From Escherichia phage vB_EcoM_P8, in the sequence record PV390659.2: a stretch of DNA of 64,000 bases; one strand, 5' to 3'. The translations under genes were made by a program, and so were the position numbers. Below, in pieces: positions 6,365 to 50,779 of this stretch. Position 1 is the stretch's first letter. Each line of letters opens with the position of its first letter. The notes under the pieces are model-generated. The model saw only the letters and a program-made list of their open reading frames with translations. It did not search any database and was not told the origin of the DNA.

Positions 6365-6391
6365 AGGGGCTTCGGCCCCTTTCTTCATTTT
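6365..6391 (+). terminator. rho-independent terminator after hoc
   Basis: AGGGGCTTCGGCCCCT hairpin then T-rich tract. Confidence 0.7.
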
Positions 6392-41362: not shown

Positions 41363-41382
41363 AAATTAATTAGGAAAATAAA

Positions 41383-45831: not shown

Positions 45832-46362
45832 ATGTCTCTTTATACCGAACTGAATGAAACTTCCGAAAAATCTTTTGATGGTATCTTATCAATAATGCAA
45901 AAGCAGGTATTAGAACAGCTTAGTGAAGCCGCAAGCAACGGACATAAGGCTTGTCGAATCCCAAGCCCACATCGTCGCCTGTATGAACGCCCTCTTATTA
46001 ATTGGCTAGAAAGCGAAGGTCTTACAGTTAAGATTTGTCCTGCCAAATTTGATGTCCCACGTATTCTTAATATTTACTGGGATAAACCGATTGAGAAACC
46101 GATTGAGAAAAGTGAACCTTGGGTTGTCAATGTAAAAACATATGATAATGGATGCTCACTTGAGGTGTCTGCTGTAATTAAAGGCACTCACGGTGAAAAA
46201 TCGTGGGGTTGGCCTGGTAAAGATAAAGAAATCGTGTTAAGTGTAAAAGCTACTAGTATTAGTACTCCTATAGCTAAAAGCATTATCGCCGCCGCTGTTG
46301 AAGAAGCTGAACGAATTTGTAAAATTAAAAATAGTTTACATCTCTTAAATAGCATGATATAA
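45832..46362 (+). CDS. hypothetical protein
   Basis: 176 aa ORF behind early promoter; contains a 12-bp tandem duplication (PIEKPIEK). Confidence 0.6.
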   Translation: MSLYTELNETSEKSFDGILSIMQKQVLEQLSEAASNGHKACRIPSPHRRLYERPLINWLESEGLTVKICPAKFDVPRILNIYWDKPIEKPIEKSEPWVVNVKTYDNGCSLEVSAVIKGTHGEKSWGWPGKDKEIVLSVKATSISTPIAKSIIAAAVEEAERICKIKNSLHLLNSMI

Positions 46363-46405
46363 TTCTTCCACAGATTTTAATTTTTAATCAACCTAAGGAA
46401 ATACT

Positions 46406-46999
46406 ATGAACACACTGAAGAAAATTGTTGAGTTTATTCGCACTAAACTTGGTTCTGCTATGGCTAAAAATCTATCTGTTGAAGAACAGTATACTGCTGC
46501 AGCAGCAAAACTTCTTGATAAAATTAAAGACCTAAAAACTGCTTCTGTTAAATCTATTAATGAAGAAAAACGTATTCGTGAACTTGTTATCGAAAAGAAT
46601 CGACAAGCCGAATCAAAAGAGCGTGAAATTCGCAAACTTCTTTCCGAAGGTCAAGATGTAACAATGCATGCTAAGCTCGGTTTACTATATCGTCGAACAG
46701 CTGAGCAGTTGACTACTAAAGCTGATGGTTATGCTGAAATGCGAATTGAAATCGCCAAGAAAGTAGTTGAGTTAGATGATGCTCGTCAAGAACTTGCAGT
46801 TAAATTGGAATATATCCGTGAAACTCGTGCGGCAAATGCTCTTGGAATTAGTACTGCTGATGATGTAGTTGAAATCGCAGCGCTAACTAAGGTTGATATT
46901 GAAGATACCCTTGCTCGAGTTGAAACCTTTAATGGTAATATTTCTGGGGTTGAAACTACCTCTGCCGATGTTCAGGAATACATTAATTCTCTGAAATAA
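46406..46999 (+). CDS. coiled-coil protein, possibly PspA/IM30-like
   Basis: 197 aa, heptad-rich helical sequence; family assignment is a guess from composition. Confidence 0.5.
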
Positions 47000-47006
47000 T
47001 GATAAG

Positions 47007-47024
47007 GGGCTTCGGCCCCTATTA
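47007..47024 (+). terminator. hairpin after ORF 46406-46999
   Basis: AGGGGCTTCGGCCCCT hairpin, same sequence as the hoc terminator stem; no strong T-run. Confidence 0.45.
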
Positions 47025-47040: not shown

Positions 47041-47649
47041 ATGAAAATGCAAAGTGATTTCAATTCAATGTTTGAAGAGTTCCAAAGACAAGTTGATGTT
47101 CCAGACCAATTACTAAATGCTCTTAAACGTATGGCAGAAGGACGTAATTACTATTGGGGCTCTTCGTATGAAACTGATGAAAGTCTTTCTGGAAGACTTT
47201 ATAGAGGTAAAAAGTCTTTAATACGTCCTGGAATACTCATTAAAAGTATTGAATCAATTCATTCATTGACATGTGATTTTGATGTTGAATTTACTGATTT
47301 CATTTCTCCTGAATGGACAGTTTGTTATTTAAATGACGATTATGATTATCTTGGCGTTTATAGTTTAAGTGACGCATGGTTTAAACGTAATTTACAAAAG
47401 TCAAATTTATTTTATATTGATACTACGGTAAAATTTCAGGGAAAGAAATATTTCTTTACTCTTATAGTTGATTCTGAAACAAAGCATGAAAATAAACGTA
47501 TTCTTAGTAAAAAGAATATCTTAACTATTGTTGATGATCTTTTTGATAAATTCGTGGAAAATCCTAATTTTGAAAGCGATTTATTATTAGAAAAATTTGT
47601 TAAGGAATGTAGAGAATATGTCAAAGCCATCACTATACCTTCCAAGTAA
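47041..47649 (+). CDS. hypothetical protein with C-terminal FVKECR motif shared with the next three ORFs
   Basis: 202 aa ORF. Confidence 0.55.
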   Translation: MKMQSDFNSMFEEFQRQVDVPDQLLNALKRMAEGRNYYWGSSYETDESLSGRLYRGKKSLIRPGILIKSIESIHSLTCDFDVEFTDFISPEWTVCYLNDDYDYLGVYSLSDAWFKRNLQKSNLFYIDTTVKFQGKKYFFTLIVDSETKHENKRILSKKNILTIVDDLFDKFVENPNFESDLLLEKFVKECREYVKAITIPSK

Positions 47650-48010
47650 ACCTGTGAAGTATGAACTAAAGCGTCAGCTAATTCCTACTGATGTATTAAT
47701 AGGTCCTGTGACAGCTATATCATTTGTAATTCTATTGATTGTTGGAATGGTTATAGACTTTATGACTGATATTGAATCTGGCGTAATATTTTTGTTAGTA
47801 TTAATTCTTCCATTAGTAGTTCCATTTTTATTGGTACCTGTAAATTGGGTAGGATATTGGTATCAAGGAAGGCATTATCGTAAACGTGTACGTGAATGGA
47901 AAGCTCAGTGTAAAAAGATTAAAAAGGAACACCAGCTTAAACTAAATATGTATGAATTTAATGAAATTATGAAATTTGTTAAGGAATCACGATGCAAAAG
48001 CCAAAACTAA
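47618..48010 (+). CDS. small membrane protein, paralog family member (C-terminal FVKESR)
   Basis: 130 aa from ATG 47618; two hydrophobic helices then basic region. Confidence 0.55.
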   Translation: MSKPSLYLPSKPVKYELKRQLIPTDVLIGPVTAISFVILLIVGMVIDFMTDIESGVIFLLVLILPLVVPFLLVPVNWVGYWYQGRHYRKRVREWKAQCKKIKKEHQLKLNMYEFNEIMKFVKESRCKSQN

Positions 48011-48366
48011 ATAAAGTCAAATATTCTTTTTCTGAGTCATTTTTAATTTTTGCTGTAGCGTTGGCTGCAGCTCTTGCTGGTAGTCTTATTGGATTAATGA
48101 TTGACTGTATTATTTTAAACATCCGCAGTAACGTCAGCGGTATAGTAGATATAATAGAAGTTTGGAGTGAACTTCATTATACTATAGCGATTTCATTATT
48201 TTCATTCTTTGGTATTATTTTATATTTTCATTATGATAATTTTAAAATAAATTGGCAAAGAAAAAAGGATTACAAAATACAATTAAAAGAATATAATAAC
48301 TACATGTCTTATATTGAAAATGAATCAATGAAAGAATTCGTGAATGATTGTAGGAAAATCAAATGA
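47992..48366 (+). CDS. small membrane protein, paralog family member (C-terminal FVNDCRKIK)
   Basis: 124 aa, two predicted TM helices. Confidence 0.55.
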   Translation: MQKPKLNKVKYSFSESFLIFAVALAAALAGSLIGLMIDCIILNIRSNVSGIVDIIEVWSELHYTIAISLFSFFGIILYFHYDNFKINWQRKKDYKIQLKEYNNYMSYIENESMKEFVNDCRKIK

Positions 48367-48851
48367 TTTTAAAAACTCGCTGGTATGATTTAGATGATGG
48401 GGACGATGGCATTCCAGTTGATAGAGTTGACTGGAATGGCTGTTCCGAAGATATGAAAAATTTGTTAATTAGGGAGTTTAGAATGGGATATCAACCAGTT
48501 AAGCCATCTACTGCAACAGATGATAAATTCGTGTGTATTCAAAATGGTCGTGCTAAGTTAACGAACGCTGATTGGTTCACAGATAAGAAGGTTATTCTGT
48601 GGTATATTATTAGTTTTCCTGTGACATCATTTGTATTTTGCTTCTTTGGAGAAAGTCCAATAGGCAGAACGGAAGATTGGATTCTTTTAATTATACTTGT
48701 TAATATTTTTACAGCAGCAGTACTATCAGGAATATGGTGCGTGTTCATTGAAATGCCATGGCGGTTACGTAGGCAGCAAAAGATTTTTGATGAAAAGAAA
48801 TATACTCAAAATTTAAATAATTTTATCACTGAATGCAGGAAATTAAAATGA
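48363..48851 (+). CDS. small membrane protein, paralog family member (C-terminal FITECRKLK)
   Basis: 162 aa, two predicted TM helices. Confidence 0.55.
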   Translation: MILKTRWYDLDDGDDGIPVDRVDWNGCSEDMKNLLIREFRMGYQPVKPSTATDDKFVCIQNGRAKLTNADWFTDKKVILWYIISFPVTSFVFCFFGESPIGRTEDWILLIILVNIFTAAVLSGIWCVFIEMPWRLRRQQKIFDEKKYTQNLNNFITECRKLK

Positions 48852-49288
48852 AAACACTATCAGCTGGTATTATCTTTATGACCGAAGATAAAGATTTATT
48901 CATGGGACGGGTTACTGGTTCTCGTAAGCCTGGAATGATGGCACATCGCTGGGATATTCCAAAGGGCCGCGTAGAAAATTCTGATTTAAGCGCACTAGAT
49001 GCAGCACGAAGAGAATGCTCAGAAGAGACCGGTTTTAGCAATTATAGTCCAGACCTTCTAAAAGACCTAGGTGTATTTAAATATTCTAGTAATAAAGACT
49101 TACAGTTATTTTATTATACGATTCCAGTAGAGCATGAGATGTTTAGAAATTGCCATTGCGAGTCTTATTTTGAAAATAAAGATGGCGTTATGATTCCAGA
49201 GATGGATGCTTTTGCTCTTATTCCTCGTACTCAGTGGCAATATGTGATGGGTCCTTCACTTTACCGAATAATGAACAGCCTCTTTTAA
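48848..49288 (+). CDS. nudE: Nudix hydrolase NudE
   Basis: Nudix box GRVENSDLSALDAARRECSEETG; start taken at ATG 48848 with AGGAAA RBS (ORF track alternative 48833). Confidence 0.8.
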   Translation: MKTLSAGIIFMTEDKDLFMGRVTGSRKPGMMAHRWDIPKGRVENSDLSALDAARRECSEETGFSNYSPDLLKDLGVFKYSSNKDLQLFYYTIPVEHEMFRNCHCESYFENKDGVMIPEMDAFALIPRTQWQYVMGPSLYRIMNSLF

Positions 49289-49819
<531 letters not shown>

Positions 49820-50304: not shown

Positions 50305-50779
50305 ATGAAAACATATCAAGAATTTATCACTGAAGCAGCTATTAATTCTCAAATTATTGCTGAATCTTTTACTGATCTTTTGAAATTTAAAAAAAGGTCA
50401 AAAAATCACTGCTGTATTGGATGATGGTACAGAAGTTGAGATGGATGTACAGGGATATAATTATGCAGTAGATGGAAAACTGTATAATAAATCCCATGCT
50501 AAATTTGATTCATTTGACGACTTTGTTAATACAGTTGAAGATGAAAAAACTCGTAGATCAATTTCAACTGGTGATGCTAAGGTTCTTATGGCACACGGTC
50601 ATGAACGTATTCGTGCTAAACAGAATAAAATGGGTGAAGATAATTTCGCATTAGTTGGTTATCAATCTGGTAAGCAAACTTATGGCTATCAGCGTACTGC
50701 TACCATGTATAATAAGAATGGTAAAATCGCTTTCGTGAATAGTAAAGGTTCTATTCAGTACGTCAAATCATTCAAATAA
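50305..50779 (+). pseudogene. internal-protein-like gene interrupted by a +1 frameshift in an A7 homopolymer (or sequencing error)
   Basis: ATG 50305 encodes MKTYQEFITEAAINSQ... and stops at 50422-50424; the reading continues in the +1 frame from the A7 run (50389-50395) to 50779; with six A the ORF is continuous, about 157 aa. Confidence 0.6.

Follow-up and report, generated by a model that had tools for sequence, protein, structure and literature searches.

Genes e.5 to e.2 and their C-terminal motif

The window analyzed here, a stretch of 64,000 nucleotides (nt) from Escherichia phage vB_EcoM_P8 (PV390659.2), matches the DNA of Escherichia phage vB_EcoM_BMB16, a Tequatrovirus, with 100% identity and carries on its plus strand four consecutive small early accessory genes, e.5, e.4, e.3 and e.2 of phage T4, whose products share a short C-terminal peptide motif. 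The genes were identified by full-length PHROG profile matches and by synteny with T4 and T2, their place being between e.6 and nudE, and the gene order e.6, e.5, e.4, e.3, e.2, nudE, e, denV is that of the T4 RefSeq map. Order and lengths of e.5 to e.2 are the same as in the T4 orthologs, with identities of 86-95%. In T4, e.2 to e.6 are listed among the genes of unknown function (PMC11879866), and literature searches found no functional studies of them.

Gene e.5 (47041..47649; PHROG 2607, E=5e-109) encodes a soluble protein of 202 amino acids without a transmembrane (TM) helix. The product of e.4 (47618..48010; PHROG 2604, E=4e-71) is a two-TM hairpin of 130 amino acids with helices at 47699-47755 and 47795-47851 and a basic, putatively cytoplasmic tail; that of e.3 (47992..48366; PHROG 2330, E=1e-61) is a two-TM hairpin of 124 amino acids with helices at 48040-48096 and 48172-48228 and likewise a basic tail. 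Gene e.2 (48363..48851; PHROG 2203, E=3e-78) is present in its intact form of 162 amino acids, with an acidic N-terminal domain of about 75 residues, TM helices at 48591-48647 and 48678-48734, and a basic tail. The open reading frame (ORF) caller lets e.4 begin earlier, with a TTG at 47597; in T4, T2 and their relatives the annotated start is the ATG at 47618. The GenBank record of BMB16 (PV102577) has no coding sequence between e.5 and e.3, though the e.4 ORF is intact and 86% identical to T4 e.4.

Hydropathy confirms the two TM helices followed by a basic segment that the initial annotation had seen in the last three ORFs, and finds no hydrophobic helix in e.5. In e.4, e.3 and e.2 the loop between the two hydrophobic helices is uncharged or acidic (0-1 basic residues), and the tails hold 15, 10 and 9 Lys/Arg residues, respectively. 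Under the positive-inside rule, basic tails and loops with few basic residues imply that the three proteins are oriented N-in/C-in, which would place their tails in the same compartment as the soluble e.5 protein.

All four proteins end in the pattern Φ-x-x-F-[IV]-x-[ED]-C-R, e.4 in the variant form FVKESRC. The motif reads FVKECRE in e.5 (47596..47616), FVKESRC in e.4 (47975..47995, with the ATG of e.3 inside its R-C codons), FVNDCRK in e.3 (48337..48357) and FITECRK in e.2 (48822..48842), all on the plus strand, and both the ORFs and the related C-terminal peptides that had been quoted for them were found as described. Among the 303 six-frame ORFs of at least 40 amino acids in the window, the strict pattern [FW][IV]..C[RK] matches three times only, in e.5, e.3 and e.2, at 11, 3 and 3 residues from the C-terminus. 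When the residues of the 93 plus-strand ORFs were shuffled, the mean was 0.18 strict matches (P about 5e-4); when restricted to the last 20 residues the mean was 0.03, and three matches were reached in 0/2000 shuffles. The strict pattern was chosen post hoc, and the real control is replication in other genera.

Only part of the set is similar over its full length. BLASTP aligns e.4 with e.3 from end to end (residues 1-125 versus 1-121, 21% identity, E=0.001) and e.3 with e.2 over the last 38 residues, and the e.4 profile PHROG 2604 matches e.3 residues 32-122 at E=0.008. For a comparison by hhalign, family profiles were built with orthologs from further genera, and reversed profiles served as controls (0.2-5.1%, P 0.008-0.3). 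The pair e.4 and e.3 scored 88.6% (P=2.6e-6) over 41 columns, the whole cytoplasmic tail, followed by e.3 and e.2 (66%, P=5.5e-5, 17 columns), e.5 and e.2 (28.7%, P=6e-4, 25 columns) and e.5 and e.3 (24.3%, P=8e-4, 13 columns); e.5 with e.4 (1.1%, P=0.05) and e.4 with e.2 (2.1%, P=0.023) were no better than the controls.

With a shared two-TM, N-in/C-in architecture and significant profile similarity, e.3 and e.4 are probably true paralogs. The proposal that all four genes form one paralog family generated by tandem duplication thus holds for this pair, by BLASTP, PHROG and hhalign alike, and for the shared C-terminal module. It does not extend to e.5, whose similarity stops at the last 13-25 residues, nor to the pairs e.4/e.2 and e.5/e.4, which are indistinguishable from reversed controls; similarity beyond the tail is not significant in every pair, and hhalign aligns tail columns only. 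Judged from these alignments, the element common to the four proteins is a C-terminal module and not the whole protein. Databases list the four as unrelated families of unknown function, in which the cross-family tail is not captured.

The motif in other Straboviridae

Gene e.6, which has relatives in 1106 phage records, was used as synteny anchor, and the region around it was taken from 14 phages. It contains about 40 instances of the motif near e.6, distributed over at least 11 genera of Straboviridae; the carriers are two-TM proteins and small soluble ones, both e.5-like and other. The shared motif is confirmed and has a wider distribution than the initial annotation saw.

In Mosigvirus S143_2 the tails are EQFIMECREYV, EFVKEIRCK, NFIKECRK* and, on a fourth two-TM protein, NFIKECRGK*; in Dhakavirus dhaeg they are RFIAECREYA, EFIKEVRNGTA* and TFIKECKS*, and the e.2 homolog of Gaprivervirus VR25 ends in SFIEECRK*. 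The Kanagawavirus phages PEi20 and Kosakonia 305 contribute SFIKGCRNGRN*, DFVDQCRANIK, LFIKNVRRK*, AFIQMCRR.. and SFIQMCRG.., and Klebsiella phage K65 contributes EFIKYCRERAQK*, DFVKEVRRK*, AWIRSCRK*, SWIKEMK* and LFIAKCRAK*. Further tails were found in Karamvirus PG7 (NFIRICRK.., SFIDDCRRARK*, EFITECRGK.., NFISKCRTKR*), the Aeromonas phage ZPAH1 of the genus Ishigurovirus (RFIKKCRGMVK*, NFVRKCRDIMK.., SFIKECRKIVS*), Biquartavirus 44RR2 (LFVDYCRRTASKK*), Pseudotevenvirus RB43 (KFIHSCKK..) and Pectobacterium phage POP12 (SFIHQCK..). The distant e.5-like genes were located by synteny with e.6; an alignment of them from eight genera (16-19% identity outside Mosigvirus) has M1, N98, F186, C190 and R191 as its invariant columns, the last three of which belong to the tail motif of e.5.

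At the nucleotide level the motif is variable. Arg is encoded by all six codons (AGA, AGG, CGA, CGT, CGC and CGG), Cys by TGT and TGC, and Phe by TTT and TTC. The Shine-Dalgarno (SD) sequence of the next gene is either outside the motif or in the K-E, E-E, K-G, I-R-S or R-K codons. Between the motif and the following start there are from 11 to more than 500 nt (in ZPAH1 an 80-residue protein ending in ..SFIKECRKIVS* is followed by a gap of 240 nt), and the motif stands 0-32 residues before the stop. The residues are thus kept through synonymous change and independently of a downstream start, and the codon variety, the mobile SD and the variable distances to next start and to stop all argue that selection keeps the motif as a peptide and not as a by-product of the ribosome binding site.

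An exhaustive phmmer search of e.5 against 1.8 billion representative sequences returned five matches, all close relatives or fragments, and no functional lead. A scan of IMG/VR with e.4 as query gave five loci, and a scan with the back-translated FIKECRK-stop gave eight, of which four, one of them already in the set of loci compared, are e.2 or e.3 genes of Straboviridae and one (L027) is an internal ..QFIKECRKW in a phage protein of 156 amino acids; the matches L024-L026 were rejected as chance, since no ORF ends at the site. The cross-family tail and its distribution appear to be undescribed; the genes themselves are known orphan genes.

Two further observations concern the same region. The gene that follows e.6 in PG7 (L012, 4656-5179) appears to be split into an ORF of 79 amino acids and one of 95 amino acids with a TTG start, has no tail motif, and contains ..KFIFSFIADNN.., which, unaligned, loosely resembles ..YFFTLIVDSE.. 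of e.5; it is probably a decayed e.5-like gene. Directly 3' of the e.3-like gene, members of Mosigvirus, Dhakavirus, Gaprivervirus, Kanagawavirus and Karamvirus carry a second tandem family of two to four acidic soluble proteins of 65-105 amino acids, all ending in W[VI]SSSxxC* or xSSC* (L003, 4784-5578; L007, 4191-4772; L009, 4984-5565; L010, 5710-6545; L012, 5302-5828). None of these proteins is encoded in the window.

Junction repeats, gene loss and flanking genes

The DNA of the gene junctions is repetitive. A 16-mer, AAATTTGTTAAGGAAT, which was missed in the initial annotation, is present in two exact copies: the first, at the e.5/e.4 junction (47593..47608), encodes (K)FVKE and holds the AAGGA SD of e.4, and the second, at the e.4/e.3 junction (47972..47987), holds the SD of e.3, whose ATG (47992) comes 6 nt later. 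A different repeat marks the following two junctions. Its first copy, TGTAGGAAAATCAAATGA (48349..48366), comprises the C-R-K-I-K-stop codons of e.3, an AGGA SD and an ATGA overlap with e.2; its second, TGCAGGAAATTAAAATGA (48834..48851), contains an SD and the ATGA overlap with nudE. The two copies are identical at 15/18 positions, and their common pattern, TGYAGGAAAWTHAAATGA, has no other zero-mismatch match in the window; the sharing of a junction pattern, as annotated earlier, therefore stands, with the correction that the third variable position is C/A and not C/T. The AGGAAA-N5-ATGA part is generic and is also found at unrelated junctions, for example at 41369. In 4/4 cases the SD of the next gene lies inside the motif codons, in agreement with the earlier remark that C-terminal codons double as ribosome binding site. 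With T4 genes packed end to end, the codons of the tail also carry the next SD, which gives rise to the short repeated junctions; as a side effect, these provide the microhomology by which modules are deleted in frame or fused.

Such events are seen in natural isolates. In T2 (L019) and in the IMG/VR locus L015, e.2 is absent exactly between two copies of TGCAGGAAA, with the crossover inside TGCAGGAAA, so that e.3 is joined from ..DCRK to LK*/nudE; in L015 it ends ..GAT TGC AGG AAA TTA AAA TGA and runs straight into nudE. In this excision the suggested module exchange at a conserved linker is observed directly. By tblastn, e.2 is found in about 447 records at the Tequatrovirus level and e.3, e.4 and e.5 in about 500. 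In UFV05 (P0143), residues 1-32 of e.4 are fused to residues 87-162 of e.2 at TCCTGTGACA, which in the window occurs in e.4 at the start of TM1 (47704..47713, encoding P-V-T) and in TM1 of e.2 (48617..48626), both on the plus strand. Mosigviruses of the phiC120 type have lost about 265 nt from the interior of e.3 (L004, 4446-4545; L028, 3349-3426 in reverse-complement coordinates), a deletion that leaves the first few codons, out of frame, and the last 25 codons or so (..ENFIKECRK*) with the ribosome binding site of the next gene.

The T4 copy of e.2 has been reduced by frameshifts to a remnant of 102 amino acids (T4 67479-67974; L001, 3480-3975). Two other frames, read through the gap before nudE that is annotated as 'intergenic', still give the remainder of the intact protein, including ..FIEMPWRLRRQQKIFDEKKYAQNLNNFITECRK, and one of them contains the ..NFITECRK tail. 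By this comparison the e.2 of the T4 reference is a pseudogene of a membrane protein of 162 amino acids.

The four genes are flanked by e.6 and nudE. Gene e.6 (46406..46999, plus strand; PHROG 1203) encodes a helical protein of 197 amino acids, whose relatives in the 1106 phage records are 31-100% identical to it. Its identity is 98% within Tequatrovirus, 88% to Mosigvirus and 53-65% to phages of Kosakonia, Klebsiella, Aeromonas and Enterobacter, and it is far more conserved than the neighbouring genes. The label 'host specificity protein', which e.6 bears in many records, found no support, and a relationship to PspA/IM30 was rejected at the sequence level (hhalign against E. coli PspA, P=0.4; no PDB or Pfam match). 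Scans of e.6 to e.2 against Pfam, NCBIfam and PADLOC gave nothing above threshold; precomputed Pfam assignments exist for e.4 (PF26873) and e.2 (PF26896).

Upstream of e.6 lies the best promoter-like site of the region (46335..46363, plus strand), a sigma-70-type, TG-extended TTTACA-17-TATAAT with an 11/12 match. It is a consensus match only, the count of such sites being not above that in shuffles, and it is probably the early promoter of an e.6-to-e operon. Between e.6 and e.5, the sequence GGGGCTTCGGCCCC (47006..47019, plus strand) can form a hairpin with a UUCG loop, without a T-tract on the plus strand; the 14-nt hairpin occurs twice in the window, the second copy being at 6366. Promoter- and terminator-like sites were sought at the junctions (47590-47620, 47970-47995, 48345-48366 and 48830-48851) and none were seen; this absence and the start/stop overlaps fit a single, coupled transcription unit. 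Genes e.5 to e.2 would accordingly share one transcript with the upstream gene e.6 and the downstream genes nudE and e, joined by these overlaps.

The start of nudE (Nudix hydrolase; 48848..49288, plus strand) overlaps the stop of e.2, to which nudE is predicted to be translationally coupled. In the T4 RefSeq annotation nudE starts at an ATG formed from the E-C codons of the e.2 tail (MQEIKMKTLS, 151 amino acids; 48833-48850 in the window); the records of BMB16 and T2 start at MKTLS, with AGGAAA 5 nt upstream and the ATGA overlap. From its sequence context the MKTLS start is more likely than that of T4 RefSeq. The endolysin gene e (49325-49819, plus strand) follows downstream of nudE.

A putative docking helix and its alternatives

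On balance we lean towards the reading that the motif is a shared cytoplasmic C-terminal docking helix, carried by the differing heads of e.5, e.4, e.3 and e.2, with the peptide itself under selection. The tail would be a helix, some 13-40 residues long, with Φ-x-x-F-[IV]-x-[ED]-C-R-[KE] at its end, and the heads would be a soluble domain in e.5, plain two-TM hairpins in e.4 and e.3, and an acidic N-terminal domain with a hairpin in e.2. The L/F/I/C face of such an amphipathic helix, together with the invariant Arg, would bind a common partner on the inner side of the cytoplasmic membrane, or the tails would bind one another there, and docking would bring together a variable set of accessory proteins or direct them to their place. 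The proposal of docking is prompted by the presence of one invariant peptide on unrelated heads; the single helix face is inferred from the spacing Φ(-3), F(0), I/V(+1), C(+4). In the e.6-containing phages examined, from 10 genera, motif genes follow e.6, which makes e.6 the obvious candidate for the partner.

Several points weigh against a docking helix. AlphaFold2 (AF2) models the tails of both e.5 and e.2 as helices at low confidence (mean predicted local distance difference test, pLDDT, of 54 for e.5 with 4 sequences and of 50 for e.2 with 23 shallow sequences); with models this poor the helix is not structurally established, and any partner is a candidate only. The 'invariant' Cys is not universal, being replaced by S, V or I in tails of the e.4 type (FVKESR, FIKEVR, FVKEIR), and K65 has WIKEMK. 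Phage VR7 keeps e.3 and e.2, and its syntenic 9 kb contain no e.6. Pfam, NCBIfam, PADLOC and PDB yielded no homolog whose function is known, profile searches of PDB with the e.5-like and e.6 alignments giving no credible match. Members decay frequently (e.2 in T4, T2, e.3 in phiC120, the e.5-like gene of PG7), and knock-downs of e.2 to e.6 in T4 had no laboratory fitness effect (PMC11879866, supplementary file 15). Given the last two points, any function would be conditional. Exclusion, anti-defence or host takeover may be considered for e.5 to e.2, as candidate roles only.

A bolder form of the docking helix, which we put forward tentatively, is that the tail is a phage 'address tag' by which a changing set of unrelated early proteins (the soluble e.5-type domain, other small soluble proteins and several two-TM hairpins) is plugged into a hub at the inner membrane. 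As hub the near-ubiquitous e.6 might serve, or a host protein, or the tails themselves as a hetero-oligomer, perhaps bridged via the conserved Cys, and new heads would be recruited by in-frame recombination that retains the tail. More remote is a variant in which the nascent tail acts in cis on the ribosome and tunes termination and reinitiation.

A tag of this kind has a counterpart in the capsid targeting sequence (CTS) of T4, the N-terminal MKTYQEFIAE, which stands on soluble, packaged internal proteins and is cleaved by the prohead protease. The two are alike in being short peptides shared by small accessory proteins that come from one genome region and are unrelated in other respects, and in an E-F-I-x-E core. 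They differ in that the tail of e.5 to e.2 is C-terminal and partly on integral membrane proteins, with no evidence for packaging, and identity with the CTS was rejected on position and membrane topology. The window also contains, at 50305-50779, an ORF of 39 amino acids that begins with a CTS (MKTYQEFITEA) and continues in the +1 frame (..KKGQKITAVLDDG..) to 50779; as read from the two frames, this is an internal-protein-type gene, interrupted near 50390-50420 by either a frameshift or an error of sequencing.

Among the alternatives, a single tandem-duplicated family of inner-membrane effectors, serving exclusion, anti-defence or host takeover, keeps the most ground and is nevertheless unlikely. 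The tail would here be the ancestral juxtamembrane part, gained secondarily by e.5. The weak full-length alignment of e.3 and e.4 fits this origin, as do a PVT..SFV shared by e.2 and e.4 at TM1 down to the DNA level, tandem paralogs elsewhere (e.5a/e.5b of ZPAH1 at E=3.5e-15; the 112- and 117-residue proteins of PG7), and a turnover and dispensability typical of arms-race genes. Profile comparison, however, detects no similarity of the e.2 TM region to that of either e.3 or e.4. The e.5-like soluble carriers are moreover the most widespread, and RB43, POP12 and 44RR2 have no two-TM members in the regions examined, which suggests that the tail predates the membrane proteins. There is also no match to any defence or exclusion model: PADLOC returned for e.4 only a 4TM effector at E=0.027, and for e.5, e.3 and e.2 nothing. 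Imm and Sp of T4 are superinfection-exclusion membrane proteins, small, early, located in the inner membrane and encoded in a T-even accessory region. Proteins e.4, e.3 and e.2 resemble them in being small early membrane proteins from such a region; no sequence or profile link turned up, a direct comparison with Imm or Sp not being part of the searches, and the PHROG matches of e.4 and e.3 are only to unannotated 'membrane protein' families.

Less probable again is that the repeats were selected as shuffling cassettes similar to PeSL elements, with the peptide carried along on the old 3' end. The excision of e.2 between repeats in T2 and L015, the e.4::e.2 fusion at 10 nt of identity, the e.3 3' end retained in phiC120, the lower count of e.2 in the records and the unrelated heads on a shared tail would all be expected from such a linker. 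The junctions of e.5 to e.2 do resemble PeSLs (PMC2839356; Comeau et al. 2014, PMC4122927) in having short repeats at the gene boundaries of a hyperplastic region, between which recombination deletes or swaps the intervening gene. They differ in that PeSLs are intergenic and consist of a sigma-70 promoter and a terminator hairpin, neither of which was found at these junctions; the repeats at e.5 to e.2 measure 9-18 nt, are coding, carry an SD and a start/stop overlap, and encode a conserved peptide. Against selection as linkers, the homologies at issue are only 9-16 nt and lie inside coding sequence, at junctions without promoter or stem-loop; neutral hitch-hiking would lose F, I, C and R through codon turnover at 20-30% overall identity; and microhomology recombination is expected for any short repeat in T4, without selection. 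Recombination at the junctions is, from this pattern, best regarded as a consequence of the short repeats and not as their purpose.

Slightly weaker still is an origin of the motif in translational coupling, in which the 3' codons must spell an A/U-rich SD and ATGA and the constraint acts on the RNA. Every motif of the window overlaps the next SD (the K-E codons contain AAGGA and the R-K codons AGGA, at 5-11 nt from the following ATG), AGGAAA-N5-ATGA recurs at unrelated junctions, six Tequatrovirus genomes have no synonymous change in the codons at the e.5 and e.4 junctions, and phiC120 retains the tail and ribosome binding site of e.3 though the gene body is deleted. An SD, however, gives no reason for F, I/V or C, and the full use of Arg, Cys and Phe codons, with an SD that shifts or leaves the motif, is difficult to derive from it. 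The motif may sit 25-32 residues before the stop, and it is present where no gene follows within 50-500 nt (the 80-residue protein of ZPAH1, 44RR2, the 117-residue protein of PG7, RB43 and POP12). A confinement of the similarity to nucleotides that code for the ribosome binding site, which the initial annotation had raised, is half borne out in extent, most of the similarity being in the tail, and fails in cause, because the peptide is kept with other codons, with a moved SD and with the downstream gene absent.

A RegA translational operator is the least credible explanation: two identical copies of AAAUUUGUUAAGGAA lie just upstream of the e.4 and e.3 starts and agree at 12/15 positions with the RegA SELEX consensus aaAAUUGUUAUGUAA, quoted in PMC3014915, but the nine window matches at no more than three mismatches are within chance (11.9 ± 3.5), and the copies, for which conservation in other genera is lacking, stand 6-11 nt upstream of the AUG, whereas natural operators overlap it. 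Strong RegB sites are not indicated either, the junction SDs being GGAA and not GGAG (PMC3014915).

Returning to the peptide itself, the finding has consequences for how this part of the T4-type genomes is read. Dense gene packing couples protein tails to ribosome binding sites, and the resulting microhomologies drive in-frame loss and fusion of modules. As corollaries, the e.2 of the T4 reference is a pseudogene, T2 is without e.2 entirely, and e.4 is missing from a GenBank annotation. One peptide on about 40 proteins is in addition an experimental handle: a bait of 20-30 residues could find the partner of the whole set of orphan genes.

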